Assembly (NCBI GenBank): GCA_003978075.1 | Contig: QOAM01000056.1 | Span: forward strand, 1 to 37,670 | DNA length: 37,670 nucleotides | Reading direction: 5' to 3' | From: Thermodesulfatator sp. | GTDB lineage: Bacteria; Desulfobacterota; Thermodesulfobacteria; Thermodesulfobacteriales; Thermodesulfobacteriaceae | Position numbers and translations under genes: made by a program | Notes under the pieces: generated by a model | Seen by the model: only the letters and a program-made list of their open reading frames with translations | The model's database searches: none | Told to the model about the DNA's origin: nothing | In this document: one piece after another, positions 1,707-10,288 of the stretch | Numbering within the stretch: the first letter of the stretch is position 1 | How the letters are laid out: each line of letters begins with the position of its first letter

Positions 1707-1873
1707 AAGTCAAACTTACAAAACAGGAGGAGCTATCCAAGGTTTATCCGCAACAGGTCGACGGAAAAGAAAAGCCCGGGGTCTCCTTGAGTAAAGGATT
1801 TTCTCCGAAAGAGGAAGGGGGTAAGTTAAAGAAGGTCTCTGATTTTCCTCGGAGGTGAGAAAGGAGGGGGGCC

Positions 1874-2494
1874 ATGTCTATCTTTGAGGAGCCTTGGGAA
1901 AAGATCCTTGAGGAATCGGTAAAAATGCACGGACACCTTTGTGCCGGGCAGGTGCTGGGGGTAAGGCTGGCCCTTCTGGGACTGCGCCTCATCGGGATAG
2001 AGGACCCCAAAGGGGCGGATCGGAAAAAATTTCTGGTCTTTGTAGAAATGGATCGCTGCGCTACAGATGCCGTGCAGTCCGTCACCGGGGCCAGCTTGGG
2101 CAAACGCTCCCTCAAGTTTTATGACTACGGGATCATGGCCGCCACCTTTCTCCGCCTGGACACCGGCCAAGCCTTCCGAGTGATCGCCCGGGAGGAGGCC
2201 CGCCAGCTGGCTGATCGCTACTTCCCCGAAATCAAAGACCGCTACCGCAGACAACTTGAGGCCTATCGTCTCATGCCTGAAGAAGAACTTTTTGAGGTTC
2301 AAGAGGTGGAGGTCCCCCTTTCGGAGTTTGACCTTCCGGGAAGACCCCGGCGAAGGGTGAAGTGTGAGGTCTGCGGACTCTATGTGCAGGACGGGCGAGA
2401 TGTGGAACGGGAGGGGCGGATCATGTGCCGGCCTTGTGCTGAAGGAGGGTATTTTCGTCCGAAAGGCCCCCGGACCAGGCCTCCGAAAGCCTGA
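1874..2494 (+). CDS. FmdE-family protein (formylmethanofuran dehydrogenase subunit E-like) with C-terminal C4 zinc finger
   Basis: HGHLCAGQVLG, VEMDRCATDAVQ, CEVCG...CRPC; RBS AGGAGG upstream. Confidence 0.85.
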   Translation: MSIFEEPWEKILEESVKMHGHLCAGQVLGVRLALLGLRLIGIEDPKGADRKKFLVFVEMDRCATDAVQSVTGASLGKRSLKFYDYGIMAATFLRLDTGQAFRVIAREEARQLADRYFPEIKDRYRRQLEAYRLMPEEELFEVQEVEVPLSEFDLPGRPRRRVKCEVCGLYVQDGRDVEREGRIMCRPCAEGGYFRPKGPRTRPPKA

Positions 2495-4683: not shown

Positions 4684-5510
4684 GCGAATACCCCCACACG
4701 CGCGTATCCCAAGAGATCTTTATAAAATTTCACCCGCCATCCTTCTTGTTGAGCCAGATTTTCCACGGCTTTTTGCTGATTATAGCCTATTTCCAGAAAA
4801 AGTTTTCCTTTAGGCCTCAAATATCTGCGGGCTTCGGCCAGAGTGCGGCGAATATAGTCCAGCCCGTCCGGGCCCCCGTCCAAGGCCTCCGGAGGCTCGT
4901 ATTCCCGTACCTCTCGGGGGAGCTCCTTCCATTCTTCTCGACTCACATAAGGGGGGTTGGAGACCACGGCGGCAAAGGCCCGGGAAGCCTTTATCGGAGA
5001 GAGCCAGTCTCCGCGGACCAGGAGGAGACGCTGAGCGAGGCCATAGCGCGCAAGGTTCTCTCGGGCCACGGAGAGGGCCTCCGCCCGGCACTCCACCCCG
5101 ATCCCTTGAGAAAAGCGGCCCTCAAGGAGGAGAGTAATGAGCACTACCCCGGAGCCTACCCCTAATTCTAAGATCGGTCCCGGAGGGAGATCCTCGCTGA
5201 GCACGGCTTCTACCAGAATTTCGGTCTCCGGACGAGGGATGAGGACCCCGGGCCTTATGGTAAAGACCCGCCCGTAAAATTCCACCTCTCTCAAGAGATA
5301 GGCCAGGGGGACTCCCCGAGCCCTTTCTTCTAAAAGTTCGCGGAAGGCCTCCTCCGACACCGGTCTTTCGAGGTAAAGGTAAAGGTCCAGGGGTTTAAGC
5401 CCCAGGAGGTGGCCCAGCAGGACGCGGGTTTCGATAAGAGCCTCTTCCGGCGGGAGCCCGGCCTGGACCAGGAACTCCTTTCCCAAGGCCAGGGCCTCCC
5501 GGATCCGCAT
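4680..5510 (-). CDS. prmC: Release factor glutamine methyltransferase
   Basis: PLAYL, VLIPRPETEILVE, LELGVGSG, SNPPY, ALDGGPDGL, EIGYNQ. The ATG at 5510 overlaps the upstream TGA. Confidence 0.93.
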   Translation of the reverse strand: MRIREALALGKEFLVQAGLPPEEALIETRVLLGHLLGLKPLDLYLYLERPVSEEAFRELLEERARGVPLAYLLREVEFYGRVFTIRPGVLIPRPETEILVEAVLSEDLPPGPILELGVGSGVVLITLLLEGRFSQGIGVECRAEALSVARENLARYGLAQRLLLVRGDWLSPIKASRAFAAVVSNPPYVSREEWKELPREVREYEPPEALDGGPDGLDYIRRTLAEARRYLRPKGKLFLEIGYNQQKAVENLAQQEGWRVKFYKDLLGYARVGVFA

Positions 5511-6133
5511 CAAAAGCCTTTGGGACGCAGACGATTGAGGACGATTTCGTAGACCTCCTCCCCGGACCGCAACCGCCTCAAGCTATGGGCTACTTCAAAT
5601 TCCACTTCCGCCCGCTTCAAAAAGGGGACGAGCACACGGGCCCTCTCCCGAGAATGGGCGAGGTAGATTTCCCCTCCCGGCAGGAGATAGCGGCGAAAGA
5701 TCTGGAGAAGGGGCTCGAAAAGTCGGCCGGCATAGACTATTTCCGCCCCCAGGATGACCTCGAACTCCCCCAGATCCATGGGTTTAAACCAGTCAAGCCG
5801 GGCTACACGCACCTCCAGGCCGTTGACCTCCGCCGAGCGGCGGATGAGTTCCAGGGGCCGGGGTTCGTAGTCTGTAAGGGTAACCTGATGTCCGAAAGCC
5901 GCAGCCGCCAGTCCCGGAAGCCCCAGACCGGCCCAGATCTCCAGCACTCGCTTGGAGGGCTCCAGAGTGGCCACAAAGTCCGCCAAGACCAAGGAGGCTT
6001 CCCAGATCTTGGCCCAGAAGGGGAAATCCGCAAGCCCTTGGCCCTCTTGCTGAAAGTAGAAATCGAGATCTCGGGGCTTGACCACCACCAGTTCCCGATC
6101 GCGGATCTTCACGATCTCCTGGGTTAGATTCAC
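5510..6133 (-). CDS. Class I SAM-dependent methyltransferase (Methyltransf_16 / protein-lysine MTase-like)
   Basis: FPFWAKIWEASLVLA, VLEIWAGLGLPG, TLTDY, LDW, ILGAEIVY. The GTG start overlaps the upstream stop. Confidence 0.8.
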   Translation of the reverse strand: MNLTQEIVKIRDRELVVVKPRDLDFYFQQEGQGLADFPFWAKIWEASLVLADFVATLEPSKRVLEIWAGLGLPGLAAAAFGHQVTLTDYEPRPLELIRRSAEVNGLEVRVARLDWFKPMDLGEFEVILGAEIVYAGRLFEPLLQIFRRYLLPGGEIYLAHSRERARVLVPFLKRAEVEFEVAHSLRRLRSGEEVYEIVLNRLRPKGF

Positions 6134-7830
6134 GGCTCTCTCCTTCGGCCCAGTTTTACTTTAATATAGCGTAAACGCCCCTTGTGCCAAACTCGGAGGC
6201 CCAGCACCTCCCCGGGTTCCCGGCCCAGGACCAAGGCCTGGAGTTCTACCGGCTCATAGAGGGGGCGTCCTGCGCCCTCCAGGATTACATCTCCTCCCAC
6301 GGGATAAACCCGATTCCCTAAGGCCTGCACCTCCGAACCGGCCACGAGACCAGCTCGGGCCGCAGGACTCCCCGGATAGACCCGGAGCACCAGGAGCCCG
6401 AAACTCTGTTTGAGCCCTAAGGCTCTGCGCACCACCGGGGTCAAAGCCACCGTCTCTACCCCGAGCCAGGCCCACTCCACCTCTCCTTGGGTCAGAAACT
6501 TTTTTACGGATAGGCGGAGCAGCCAGCCTGGCACAGCGCTTCGCAATGCGGCTTGGGCCAAGTCCACAAATCCGGCCACCTCGCCTTGAGGAGAAAAGAG
6601 GAAGCCCTCCTTGAAGACAGGGCTATAAATCCCGAAGCGGACCGTCTCCAGGAGCCCCCGCAACCTACTCTCTTTAGGAGCCTGCACCACCCAGGCCGGG
6701 TAAACCCGCAGGGGTATCGAGGAGGTCACCAGGTGGAGGAAGGTCCCGGGGGCGGGGAAAGTCTTGGCGAAAAGCAGGCGGCTCCTTTCGCGCACCTGAT
6801 GGGGCAAACGCAAGAAGGCCAGGTCCAGGTAACCGTCATAGCCTTCAAGATGCACCGGAAAGCTCCGGCCATCGGGAAAGACGGCCTCCAGGAAGGGGGC
6901 TCCTTTAACTCGTGCATAATCAGCCAAGAGAAAGCGCCCTCCGGGAAGAAGGAGGGCCGGGGTGAGGCTTTCCGGCGGCGGGTCCGAGAGGTTTTCCAGG
7001 GGGATTTCCCGGGTGAGCACCGTCACCACCCGGGAATAAGGGGTGGCTGCCTGGACCGGAGTCCCAAAAAGAAAGAAGATCGTTGCTGCCAGGGCCACCC
7101 GATAGATTACAAAGGGATAGAAGGTGTGTCTTCGCAGAAAGGAAAGGAGAAAGGATATGGCCAGCAGACCGGCCGTCAAGGCCCCGAGAAATCCGCTAAG
7201 CATTACTAGAAAGGGAAGGCCCTGCTGACATCCCCGCAAGGCCCCTAAAAGGCCCGCCCCGGCGATAATGGGGGCGGAAAGGAGAAAGGAAAAACGGGCG
7301 GCTTCAGGGCGGGAAAGGCCCAAGAGGAGGGCCGCGGCCATGGTAATGCCGCTGCGGGAGGTCCCGGGAAAGAGGGCTAGGGCCTGAGCTAGGCCTATCC
7401 CTAGGGCCTCTCCCCATCCCAGGTCCTCCGCACGCCGGCGCTTGCGCCCCAAGATTTCTCCCAAGATCAGGGGCAGACTCATCAGGGCCAAAAAGAAGGA
7501 TACAGAGATAGGGGTGCGAAAACGGGCCTCAATTATATCCGCCAGCAGGAGCCCTGCCAGCCCTCCAGGCACGGTGGCCCAAAGGATGAGGAGAAACAGC
7601 CTTCGGCCAGGCCCTCCAGGACCCAGGTCGCCCAGCATCCCCAGCCAATCCCGTCGAAAGTAAAGGAGGACCGCCAGCAGGGTCCCCAGATGAATGAAGG
7701 CGTCAAAGGCCAGCCCTCCGTGGAACCTTAAGAGGTCCTCCACCAGCACCAGATGCCCGGAACTGGAAATAGGAAGAAACTCCGTAAGCCCTTGCAGGAC
7801 CCCCAAAATACCCGCCTGCCAGACCTCCAT
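6130..7830 (-). CDS. uppP: Fusion of undecaprenyl-diphosphate phosphatase (aa ~1-256), a degenerate HtrA-like trypsin domain and a PDZ domain
   Basis: UppP/BacA motifs QGLTEFLPISSSGH, PGTSRSGIT and AARFSFLLSAP. The C-terminal half has DGRSFPV..EGYD..LDLAFLRL, WLGV, VYPGSPAARAGL and GDVIL. Confidence 0.88.
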   Translation of the reverse strand: MEVWQAGILGVLQGLTEFLPISSSGHLVLVEDLLRFHGGLAFDAFIHLGTLLAVLLYFRRDWLGMLGDLGPGGPGRRLFLLILWATVPGGLAGLLLADIIEARFRTPISVSFFLALMSLPLILGEILGRKRRRAEDLGWGEALGIGLAQALALFPGTSRSGITMAAALLLGLSRPEAARFSFLLSAPIIAGAGLLGALRGCQQGLPFLVMLSGFLGALTAGLLAISFLLSFLRRHTFYPFVIYRVALAATIFFLFGTPVQAATPYSRVVTVLTREIPLENLSDPPPESLTPALLLPGGRFLLADYARVKGAPFLEAVFPDGRSFPVHLEGYDGYLDLAFLRLPHQVRERSRLLFAKTFPAPGTFLHLVTSSIPLRVYPAWVVQAPKESRLRGLLETVRFGIYSPVFKEGFLFSPQGEVAGFVDLAQAALRSAVPGWLLRLSVKKFLTQGEVEWAWLGVETVALTPVVRRALGLKQSFGLLVLRVYPGSPAARAGLVAGSEVQALGNRVYPVGGDVILEGAGRPLYEPVELQALVLGREPGEVLGLRVWHKGRLRYIKVKLGRRREP

Positions 7831-7832
7831 GG

Positions 7833-8771
7833 TTAAAAGAGCCTCTTTTTGATGAAATACACGGTGACCACCGTGGAGAGGACCAGAGAGACCAGGAGGA
7901 TCCCCCAGAAGGCCTGGGGATGGTTCTGAAAGGGCAACCGCACATTCATGCCGTAAAAGCTGGAAACCACGGTAGGGATGGCCAGCACAATGGCCAGAGC
8001 GGTGAGGAATTTCATGACCACGTTGAGATTGTTCCCGATAATGGAGGCATAAGCGTCCATGGTGCCGGTAAGGATGTCCGAATAAATCTTGGCCATCTCG
8101 ATGGCCTGCCGGTTTTCGATCTGGATGTCTTCCACGAGCTCCAGATCTTCCTCGGAAAGACGGAGGTAGCGGCCGGATTGAATGCGGGAAAGGACCACAT
8201 CGTTGCCCCGGAGGGCGGTATTGAAATAGACCAGGCTCTTTTCCAGACCCAGGATTTTCACCAGCTCGCGATTACGAAAGGAGCGATAGAGCTCTCGTTC
8301 GTAGTCTTCGATGAGGCGGTCCATCAAGCGGAGATAGCGCAGAAAGAGATTAGTCACGCAATAAAAAAGGAGAAAGAGAAAGGTGGTGGGACGGGCGAGA
8401 TCCACCGGCAAGAAACGGCCCGCCTGAGAGACTATTTCTTCCAGGACCAGATTTTCCTTGAGACAAACGGTGACCACCACCCCTTCCGTAATGATAATCC
8501 CGAGGGGGATAGTCTCGTAACGAAGGATATCTCCCTGATGGCGGGGGTCAGGCACATGGAAGATGATGAGAAGCTGTTTTTCCTCCACCTCCACCCGCGG
8601 CCTTTCTTCCTCATCCAGGGGGTAACGCAGGAACTCCGGGAGGATGGCGAAACGGCGTTCCACAAAGCGCAGCTCCTCTTCCGAAGGGGCGGTGAGCACC
8701 AGCCAGCTTTGAGGACAGGCCTCCTCCGCGGGCAAGAGGAAACCGTTTTCTGAACAGTAAATACGGAGCAT
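7833..8771 (-). CDS. corA: CorA-family Mg2+/Co2+ transporter
   Basis: PLDEEERPRVEVE, NNLNVVMKFLT and the signature FYGMN, with two C-terminal TM helices. The likely start is the ATG at 8771 (RBS GAGGGG), not 9032. Confidence 0.92.
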   Translation of the reverse strand: MLRIYCSENGFLLPAEEACPQSWLVLTAPSEEELRFVERRFAILPEFLRYPLDEEERPRVEVEEKQLLIIFHVPDPRHQGDILRYETIPLGIIITEGVVVTVCLKENLVLEEIVSQAGRFLPVDLARPTTFLFLLFYCVTNLFLRYLRLMDRLIEDYERELYRSFRNRELVKILGLEKSLVYFNTALRGNDVVLSRIQSGRYLRLSEEDLELVEDIQIENRQAIEMAKIYSDILTGTMDAYASIIGNNLNVVMKFLTALAIVLAIPTVVSSFYGMNVRLPFQNHPQAFWGILLVSLVLSTVVTVYFIKKRLF

Positions 8772-8790
8772 GATCCCCTCTGGTAGCCCT

Positions 8791-9666
8791 TTACTCCAGA
8801 TTTTGCACCTGTTCGCGCATTTTCTCAATGGTACTTTTGACTTCCACCGCCAGGTGCGAGATTTCGGCTGAAGCCGCCTTATTGGCCAGGGTGTTAATTT
8901 CCCGAAACATCTCCTGACAAAGGAAATCCAGTTTACGTCCGCACGGTCCTTCGCCTTCCAAAAGCCTTCGGAAGTGGCGTATATGGGCCTGGAGACGGTG
9001 GAGCTCCTCGGTAAAGTCCAGACGATCGGCAAGGATAGCCGCCTCTTGATGGAGTCTTACCGGGTCCAGCTGGTGATCCGCGAGGAGCTGACGGATTCTT
9101 TCCTCAAGTCGCTGGCGGGCTTCCACGAGGTGGGGCCCCTGAAGGGCGGCAATGCGCTCCAGCCAGCGGGCAAGTTCTTCGAGAAGCCCCTCCAGGGCCT
9201 TTTTCAGGAAGGTCCCTTCCCGGGTGCGCATTTCTTCCACTTCCTGCAGGGCCTTTTCTAGGGCCGGCCTGAATTCCGCCCACAGGGTTTCCAGCGGGGG
9301 CTCCTCTTCACTTACCCCGAAGATCTCCCGGAGTCGCAGGAGATCCCCCACCTGGATCTCCCCCGAAAGTCCGTATTCCGCCCGCAAATTTCGTAAAAGG
9401 GTCAGGTACTGGAAAAGAAGTTCGCGGTCGGCAAAGACCCGGGCCGTGGCCGGAGGTACCCCCCAAAGCCGGGCCTGGATCTCAAAGCGTCCCCGGTGAA
9501 AGCGCTCCCGCAGGACCCGCCGGATGTGCTCCTCCAAAAGATGATAGCGCCGGGGGAGCCGAAGAATGACCTCCATGAAACGGTGGTTGAGACTCTTGAC
9601 CTCCACCTGAAGGACGAAGCCCTCCCCCTCTCGTTCTCCCCGTCCGAAACCGGTCATGCTCTGCAT
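8791..9666 (-). CDS. yicC: YicC/YloC-family endoribonuclease
   Basis: MQSMTGFGR, KSLNHRF, EELHRL, GRKLDFLCQEMFREINT, KMREQVQNLE. Confidence 0.93.
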   Translation of the reverse strand: MQSMTGFGRGEREGEGFVLQVEVKSLNHRFMEVILRLPRRYHLLEEHIRRVLRERFHRGRFEIQARLWGVPPATARVFADRELLFQYLTLLRNLRAEYGLSGEIQVGDLLRLREIFGVSEEEPPLETLWAEFRPALEKALQEVEEMRTREGTFLKKALEGLLEELARWLERIAALQGPHLVEARQRLEERIRQLLADHQLDPVRLHQEAAILADRLDFTEELHRLQAHIRHFRRLLEGEGPCGRKLDFLCQEMFREINTLANKAASAEISHLAVEVKSTIEKMREQVQNLE

Positions 9667-9724: not shown

Positions 9725-10288
9725 ATGCGTTATTTGCGAAACCTTCGGCCGGATCCCACTCGTCTCATTCAAGAGAAGCTTTCTGTAGCGGAGGAACTCT
9801 ATGCCTTGTGGGGGGAGAGTTTTCTTTCCGATCCTGAACTACCCCCTCTCTTAGAGGATTATCGGCAGGCAGTGGAGGCCTCTAACCAAGTCATGGAGGA
9901 GGCCGGCACCTTCCGCGAATGCTATATATGTAGCGTACAAGACGGGCAGGGATGCTGTAAGATCGGCCTGGAGAACGAGTGTACGGTCCTGATCCTTCTT
10001 CTTAATCTCTTGCTGGGGGTAAAGCTCCCGCAGGAAAGAGAAGTCCCGGGGCGGTGCTTCTTTGTGGGGCCAACGGGCTGTAAGATCCTGGCCCGACCGA
10101 TGCTCTGCCGGGACTATTTCTGCCGCCGTCATTACCAGAAAATTCCGGAGGCGCAGATGATTCGGGTAACCCAAGTCCTGAACGAAGAGCTCACCCTTCT
10201 TTACCGGATTACGAGCCTCCTTCGGGCCCGCCTGGAATTCTGGACCGGGGACTTTCTCCAAGAGCTAGACCTCACCGGTTACACCTAA
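9725..10288 (+). CDS. Cys-cluster protein, YkgJ (CxxCxxCC)-like
   Basis: CYIC...GCC...CFFVGPTGC..ARPMLCRDYFC; 9 Cys in total. Confidence 0.65.
   Translation: MRYLRNLRPDPTRLIQEKLSVAEELYALWGESFLSDPELPPLLEDYRQAVEASNQVMEEAGTFRECYICSVQDGQGCCKIGLENECTVLILLLNLLLGVKLPQEREVPGRCFFVGPTGCKILARPMLCRDYFCRRHYQKIPEAQMIRVTQVLNEELTLLYRITSLLRARLEFWTGDFLQELDLTGYT

Follow-up and report, generated by a model that had tools for sequence, protein, structure and literature searches.

Introduction

Cell-wall synthesis is limited by how fast the undecaprenyl carrier is recycled. The window analysed here, a stretch of 37,670 nucleotides from Thermodesulfatator sp., holds a frame in which UppP/BacA is followed by an HtrA-like region and a PDZ domain. 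A first-pass annotation read it as UppP fused to an apparently catalytically dead HtrA-like domain. The locus raises two questions. Is the frame real, and does the cell keep its product as one protein?

The fusion frame

The frame codes for 566 amino acids with no internal stop (Table 1). The close coupling to both neighbours described in the first-pass annotation is seen: the ATG lies 2 nt past the corA stop, and the stop overlaps the GTG of the downstream gene (5510-6133). A promoter and terminator scan at the locus gave nothing specific.

Table 1. Features of the fusion locus, in window positions.
Feature	Positions	Strand	Basis or remark
Whole fusion ORF: UppP, internal signal-like junction, pseudo-HtrA, PDZ	6130..7830	-	566 aa, no internal stop
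UppP/BacA domain, residues 1-255	7066..7830	-	Pfam BacA E 1e-73; alignment; Foldseek
Last UppP membrane helix, residues 238-255, after RRH...YR	7066..7119	-	AF2 helix; would double as signal hydrophobic region
Retained c-region G256-T-P258-V259-Q-A261/A262	7045..7065	-	Predicted signal peptidase I cut after Ala261
HtrA protease fold without catalytic triad, about residues 262-448	6487..7047	-	AF2, Foldseek, alignment
Ala306 at catalytic His column	6913..6915	-	Alignment
Asp336 at catalytic Asp column	6823..6825	-	Alignment; kept here, not conserved in dead relatives
Lys407 at nucleophile Ser column	6610..6612	-	Alignment; register uncertain by one residue
PDZ domain, about residues 452-561, W455-L-G457 ligand loop and hairpin insert	6148..6477	-	Pfam, alignment
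corA, upstream neighbour	7833..9032	-	Kept beside uppP across much of the order, even without the partner
Methyltransf_16 gene overlapping the fusion stop	5510..6133	-	Kept downstream in families f1-f3

The same unbroken frame occurs in the genus in five further complete copies and one cut by a contig end. The named species Thermosulfurimonas marina carries it as protein P0002. Likewise, the junction is spanned free of gaps by a contig of another sample, which belongs to the same study and so is not independent. The fused frame thus holds in relatives within the genus, and it is not an assembly artefact.

An assembly error or a decaying pseudogene could nevertheless be considered. The window copy is the most diverged of the genus at several positions conserved in the family (G288 to S, G292 to A, R549 to H). 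Against this stand the frame common to six other genus genomes (one contig-cut) and the second sample, a DN/DS of 0.16 in the C-terminal half, and a confident predicted fold. The genus copies and the DN/DS value already refute this reading, which is left with next to no probability.

The UppP half

Judged by domain, fold and catalytic residues, the UppP half is an intact UppP/BacA. Pfam places BacA at residues 8-249 (E 1e-73, 248.7 bits against a cut-off of 33.4). The NCBIfam UppP equivalog models give 221, and their cut-off of 284 is not reached. In the full-length AF2 model (pLDDT 87, pTM 0.70), Foldseek matches this half to the BacA structures 5oon and 6fmt with TM 0.80-0.83 over the target. 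The catalytic motifs are E17, S22-S23-S24, H26 and P155-G-T-S-R159-S-G. In the alignment of 65 linked UppPs, E17, S22-S24, H26, P155-G156 and S158-G161 are invariant. The same holds for Gln13, at the position of E. coli Glu17. The earlier description of a complete enzyme with both catalytic motifs agrees with these data.

H26 is the equivalent of E. coli His30. Glu21, Ser27 and Arg174 of the E. coli enzyme are the equivalents of E17, S23 and R159 here (PMC5852022, PMC5861054). Both of these structure papers used the positive-inside rule to assign the N- and C-termini to the periplasm, and the periplasmic C-terminus proposed for the window protein accords with them.

A single BacA was found in the window genome, and likewise in the complete genome G005. 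A PAP2 protein is present in the window genome, and some C55-PP hydrolysis is possibly covered by it.

The HtrA-like half

The AF2 model of residues 262-566 (pLDDT 91) has DegP, DegQ and DegS as its top Foldseek matches (E about 1e-19, TM about 0.7). NCBIfam degP_htrA_DO matches the fusion at E 5e-15, and Pfam Trypsin_2 gives a weak match at 311-403 (E 0.09). We read the triad columns in a 133-row alignment. The by-eye HtrA alignment of the first-pass annotation is sustained for the fold and for the loss of His (now Ala306) and Ser (now Lys407). The register of the Ser column is ambiguous by one residue, and both candidates (K407, E408) are non-Ser. However, the retained Asp cannot be given a meaning. 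Most dead relatives have E, G, R, Q or K in the column of Asp336, and we rejected this residue as meaningful. The structural model, proposed earlier as a check, returns the fold; the triad columns (A306, D336, K407) are those of the alignment. Compared with S1C proteases, the chymotrypsin fold followed by a PDZ is present, and the His-Asp-Ser triad and the GNSGG loop are lost. As read from alignment and model, the C-terminal half is an HtrA-fold pseudoprotease and not an active S1C member.

Dead copies have lost the motifs specific to proteases (TNxH, GNPFG, QTDAAINPGNS). Still present are structural glycines and the PDZ, with both W-L-G457 and G505-N506. Pfam PDZ_2 matches residues 456-560 (E 3e-5, below the curated cut-off), and the ligand loop W455-L-G457 is kept, in line with the intact-looking HtrA-type PDZ first reported. 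G505-N506, in the PDZ hairpin insert, is invariant in 77/77 uppP-linked rows, whereas among active relatives without the link 60% have Asn.

The N-terminal region helps HtrAs trimerise. In the window protein, the N-terminal helix of active relatives is missing from both model and alignment, so the trimerisation evoked in the first-pass annotation becomes doubtful. Lacking this helix, the pseudo-HtrA may be a monomer; the MamO domain crystallised as one. An active DegP-type paralogue is also encoded in the window genome. General proteolysis is therefore covered elsewhere.

Distribution of the fusion and of the gene pair

Mapping the phylogenetic spread, as the first-pass annotation had suggested, gives four fused lineages and a long-lasting link to uppP. 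In the order (39 genomes with the window's own, loci read for 31), the pair is linked in 22 genomes, 8 fused and 14 split. Seven of the fused cases belong to the window genus, including Thermosulfurimonas marina, and one matches Thermosulfuriphilus. The 14 split genomes have uppP and then a separate partner gene that overlaps it (−1 to −29 nt); one more is interrupted by contig ends. In 16 of the 39 genomes no partner was found (8 read as loci, 8 judged by search matches only), and UppP can therefore do without it.

Searching with the UppP half brought up more BacA+Trypsin_2+PDZ proteins, one of them from the named species Dissulfuribacter thermophilus. The class of this species, Dissulfuribacteria, was represented by 61 genomes searched (including G069) and 50 fetched. 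The pair is linked in 45/50, 5 fused (one contig-cut) and 40 split and adjacent. In the remaining 5, the genes are not adjacent within the fetched stretch.

Phylum-wide, the profile score did not distinguish pseudo-HtrA from active HtrA, and the loci themselves had to be fetched and inspected. Among 47 other phylum genomes, chosen by best HtrA score and examined over about 1.8 kb upstream of htrA, uppP lies immediately before htrA in 4, all from family f22. The triad is intact in all 47. As a control, we used 80 uppP loci from a contig scan with the fusion alignment; they match generic UppP motifs, with no fusion among the matches listed. No htrA was found in their flanks among the matches listed of the general scan (0/80; 68 loci have at least 1.5 kb downstream). 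Finally, a profile built from 19 fusions was searched against 1.84 billion representative proteins and gave exactly four full-length matches (755-858 bits). These are four 50%-identity clusters, one for each of the four fused lineages. The next matches, at 410 bits, are single domains.

In the split forms, the partner has its own signal-peptide-like N-terminus, and 54 inspected genomes appear to secrete it separately. Neighbours vary by lineage, with corA and the methyltransferase gene in the window order and GH3, CopB, SprA-related and GT9 genes elsewhere. The pair outlasts all of them across two classes and one outside family. The first-pass annotation had also taken murA in the operon as a clue. 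We rejected this linkage as evidence on the domain. It is found near uppP in the window family alone, including 4 loci without the partner, and the fetched ±6 kb of families f2 and f3 contains no murA. The uppP-htrA gene pair is old and mostly consists of two genes; the fusion is one of its states.

Selection pressure and loss of the triad

We estimated DN/DS with YN00; estimates are missing for many pairs, and dS is saturated in some. For the C-terminal half, the value is 0.16 between the window genome (G000) and its nearest relative G005, with 0.21 for the UppP half. The pair G006/G002 gives 0.05, and among 20 pairs no estimable value exceeds 0.26. Both halves are under purifying selection, the dead half being a maintained pseudoprotease, and the neutral evolution that this check had been meant to detect is not seen.

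The 77 uppP-linked rows (a few proteins twice) comprise 17 with H-D-S and 60 without. On the unlinked side, the triad is intact in 50/56 rows, and the 6 exceptions group among linked lineages. Linked partners with an intact triad are those of families f22, f98 and most of f113. Family f114 presents intermediates: in one the triad is intact but position 193 is Gln, in another Ala replaces Ser. The lineage is a graded natural series, from the intact triad, through the triad with Gly193 changed to Gln and then the change of Ser to Ala, to the loss of everything.

No order row, split or fused, has Ser in the nucleophile column (0/25). Many have Ser one column later, and nearly all of those lack His. 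The protein was therefore dead before the window genus fused. We rejected the idea that the fusion caused the triad loss, since the dead form is separately secreted elsewhere and was already dead in the order.

How the fusion arose

In 7/14 split order genomes, from two families, the partner ATG lies exactly 22 nt after the uppP YR codons, in the +1 frame. So exact an offset indicates one shared ancestral overlap. HtrA trees (quick trees, with long-branch warnings) nest the fused genus among split forms with SH-aLRT 88-100. The window genus fused independently, after the triad loss. A 41-row tree needs 4 fused/split changes, and an unresolved node permits fewer origins. We count two to four. 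The AU test rejects a single clade of all fused proteins (p 2e-70) and does not separate repeated fusion from early fusion with later splitting. The UppP tree is likewise a quick tree.

A short frame-shifting deletion likely took out the stop of uppP together with the beginning of the partner's signal peptide. It would have joined the last UppP helix to the end of that signal peptide. Such a fusion would be tolerated because its products are unchanged from those of the two-gene operon.

The junction as a probable signal peptidase I site

At signal peptidase I sites, positions −1 and −3 are small, and a residue that breaks the helix lies at −4 to −6 (PMC9360617). In the window protein, Arg244 is followed by 10-11 hydrophobic residues (V245-F255) and then by the c-region G-T-P-V-Q-A/A, where the slash marks the predicted cut. 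R244, V245-F255, P258, V259 and A261 fit the pattern. The AF2 helix ends at 255, and the predicted site falls outside the UppP fold. Among the 8 genus junctions, −1 is Ala in 8/8, a Pro lies at −4 to −6 in 8/8, −3 is V, A or S, and −2 varies (Q, R, L, I). The pattern is retained across about 50% divergence. A strict site rule holds in all 7 full-length genus members at only 1/310 columns, and this column is the junction. With a permissive −1/−3 rule, most control fusions have sites as well, and the rule does not discriminate.

Conservation has to be read with care. In an LG simulation on the genus tree, an Ala is invariant by chance with probability 0.09-0.25, and the position stays small with probability 0.42-0.51. 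Moreover, 33% of the soluble-domain columns are invariant in the genus sequences. The c-region is inherited by descent, so its presence alone proves nothing.

We also scored the junctions with a rough, home-made matrix. Its training set was 99 signal peptides of HtrAs encoded as separate genes, which are homologues of the fused ones. The medians are 3.9 for 20 fused junctions and 3.0 for held-out signal peptides. Background values are 0.8-1.0 for internal helix ends of the window genome and 0.6 for 13 other UppP fusions. The window junction scores 3.2, a value reached by 15% of the background helix ends. Junctions of the Dissulfuribacter lineage score weakly (0.85, 1.7, 2.6, 3.7, 4.2 and −2.4), and one of them (G464) has no rule-abiding cut site. 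In family f114, the junction S-P-A-W-G/Y mirrors the signal end of an active paralogue, S-P-L-A-W-G/F.

The window genome has lepB. The main text and one supplement of a D. thermophilus proteomics paper do not mention the fusion protein. From the sequence pattern, signal peptidase I probably cuts the window protein and releases a soluble periplasmic pseudo-HtrA. The tethered architecture first proposed is right in that there is one frame; however, the junction retains a signal peptidase I-type site, and the domain may not stay attached.

The protein could instead remain uncut, with the c-region a relic. The pseudo-HtrA and PDZ would then sit above the periplasm-facing active site of UppP and tune or scaffold carrier recycling. 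The active site and the C-terminus do face the same side, and the pTM of 0.70 is compatible with a fixed packing of the two halves. G505-N506 may be a binding surface. Two to four fusion origins also count in its favour, since repeated fusion often marks physical partners, as do the poor or absent sites of some Dissulfuribacter-lineage junctions. Nevertheless, overlapping genes fuse easily. The 54 inspected genomes that give the partner its own signal peptide do without tethering, and the −1/−3/Pro pattern has been kept in the genus. We consider permanent tethering rather unlikely.

Possible mechanism and function

We give about an even chance to the reading of the fused pair as a cleavable polyprotein, which on sequence grounds would yield membrane UppP and a soluble periplasmic HtrA fold with PDZ, without His and Ser. 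UppP would insert normally, and the tail would be exported by its last membrane helix, serving as an internal signal peptide. LepB would cut after Ala261 and leave a roughly 33-kDa periplasmic pseudo-HtrA beside a normal membrane UppP. The cut would recreate the products of the two-gene operon.

With no standard triad to use, the dead protein probably works by binding peptides through its PDZ or its fold. This role is suggested by the PDZ ligand loop and fold that are kept and by the proteolytic motifs that are lost. The pseudo-HtrA would probably help in the envelope as a peptide binder or in a chaperone-like way, its production being coupled to that of UppP. A complex prediction of UppP (1-261) with the pseudo-HtrA (262-566), from 65-row alignments, scored 0.00 and speaks neither for nor against binding.

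On the other hand, the protein might be cut and the pseudo-HtrA be a passenger of the operon, with a periplasmic job unrelated to C55-PP and an inherited gene order as its link to uppP. Linked partners range from intact triad (f22, f98, most of f113) to fully dead, as this would allow. At least 5 of the 50 fetched class genomes carry the two genes apart, and the partner was not found in 16 order genomes. Within the order, corA and the methyltransferase gene are about equally faithful neighbours. However, in two classes and in one family outside them the pair has outlived every other neighbour, and in the order the genes overlap by −1 to −29 nt. A mere passenger is in our view unlikely.

The most ambitious reading makes the uppP-linked HtrA a dedicated periplasmic controller of lipid-carrier recycling. 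An active protease would have been repeatedly disarmed to a PDZ ligand sensor that binds and tunes UppP, and fused up to four times as a 1:1 polyprotein processed by signal peptidase. We regard it as improbable. If true, it would provide a protein-level regulator of UppP, of which the literature searched gave none.

The locus has wider consequences. A link between uppP and HtrA over two bacterial classes makes the latter a candidate partner protein for UppP. If the cut is real, overlapping genes fuse cheaply when the last membrane helix replaces a signal peptide. Annotation misses internal signal sites, and other fusions of a membrane enzyme with a periplasmic domain may be two proteins. A proteome of the fusion carrier D. 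thermophilus, with soluble and membrane fractions kept apart and a fully tryptic search, is already deposited (PRIDE PXD069670) and offers a cheap first test of the cut.

Comparison with known systems

No paper on the fusion or the gene pair was found in the full-text literature searched, which covers few subscription journals. The architecture is apparently undescribed, as the first-pass annotation had supposed; its parts and principles are already known. Three public proteins carry it under plain names (P0002, P0168, P0050). The window protein shares with UppP/BacA (PF02673) the fold, the catalytic Glu/Ser/Arg motifs and the periplasmic C-terminus. It differs by a C-terminal extension of 311 residues. 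The published BacA fusions in the literature searched are with DUF368 (PMC9876793).

The single-PDZ HtrAs DegS, DegQ and AlgW are the best sequence and structure matches and have the PDZ ligand loop in common with the window protein. Compared with them, it has lost His, Ser, TNxH, GNPFG, QTDAAINPGNS and the N-terminal helix.

MamO and degenerate MamE paralogues are selected HtrA-family pseudoproteases, with a polytopic membrane fusion and repeated independent triad loss there as here (PMC4794232). Position 193 is non-Gly in some relatives here (f114) and likewise in MamO (PMC4794232). However, MamO has the protease domain first and TauE second, has no UppP, and binds metal via a di-His motif (PMC4794232). 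The fusion here has its domains the other way round and includes a PDZ, and the HtrA partner has a gene of its own in most cases. The window protein has no TauE match and lies among housekeeping neighbours.

A possible parallel in processing is FbcH of Bradyrhizobium, which is cut at an internal signal sequence. It is a fused protein, the cytochrome b-c1 precursor (PMC4986455); PMC6256036 does not describe its processing. Both fusions join a polytopic membrane protein to a periplasmic protein. The proteins themselves are unrelated, and FbcH yields two subunits of one complex.

UppP fusion architectures

The protein search with the UppP half returned proteins with a PstS-like phosphate-binding domain C-terminal to UppP (P0065, P0079, P0100 and P0110, and also P0112 and P0159). 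One of these fusions carries the name Anaerolineae. The home-made signal-peptide matrix found no strong cleavage region at the UppP–PstS-like junctions. So the PstS-like domain likely stays tethered to UppP. A tethered domain of this kind could capture phosphate as it is released. The same search gave further fusion partners (table). Protein P0049 is a UppP with an internal duplication in exact copy, and it is probably an assembly chimera.

History of the uppP/htrA pair

Family f22 (loci L078 and L101-L103) lies outside both classes and has an htrA with an intact triad directly downstream of uppP. Its UppP clusters with family f114 in the UppP tree (support 87). Its HtrA clusters with the active outside HtrAs in the HtrA tree. 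These two placements hint at a transfer or a partner replacement.

Other loci are irregular. The complete genome G014 has uppP split over two frames (L052). The partner htrA is broken into pieces in G452 (L134), and about 860 nt separate uppP from the partner start in G440 (L140). The uppP of G011 (L051) is merely 37% identical to that of the window and clusters with a distant family in the UppP tree; this gene is likely a replaced copy.

Other reading frames and neighbouring genes

The corA frame, as listed, starts far 5' of its domain and overlaps the end of yicC. Translation probably begins close to residue 87.

Several outside families present a short trypsin gene, apparently PDZ-less, in tandem with a single-PDZ htrA. 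In the Dissulfuribacter class, many genomes carry a GH3 glycosidase gene next to uppP, upstream and divergent. This glycosidase is possibly NagZ-like and may act in peptidoglycan recycling.

Window frames, loci and proteins
Feature	Window position (strand)	Loci or proteins	Remark
ORF	1826-2302 (-)		no Pfam match
corA ORF	7833-9032 (-)		Pfam match from residue 109
ORF	9725-10288 (+)		no Pfam match; Cys-rich product
Tandem trypsin gene and htrA		L061, L063, L064, L068-L072, L093, L094
Divergent GH3 gene		L083, L086, L124, L130, L131, L136, L137, L139
UppP with M28 peptidase		P0061
UppP with TPR		P0072
UppP with PQQ/arylsulfotransferase-like propeller		P0082
UppP with DedA		P0064, P0068, P0077
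UppP with CapA domain		P0071	CapA N-terminal
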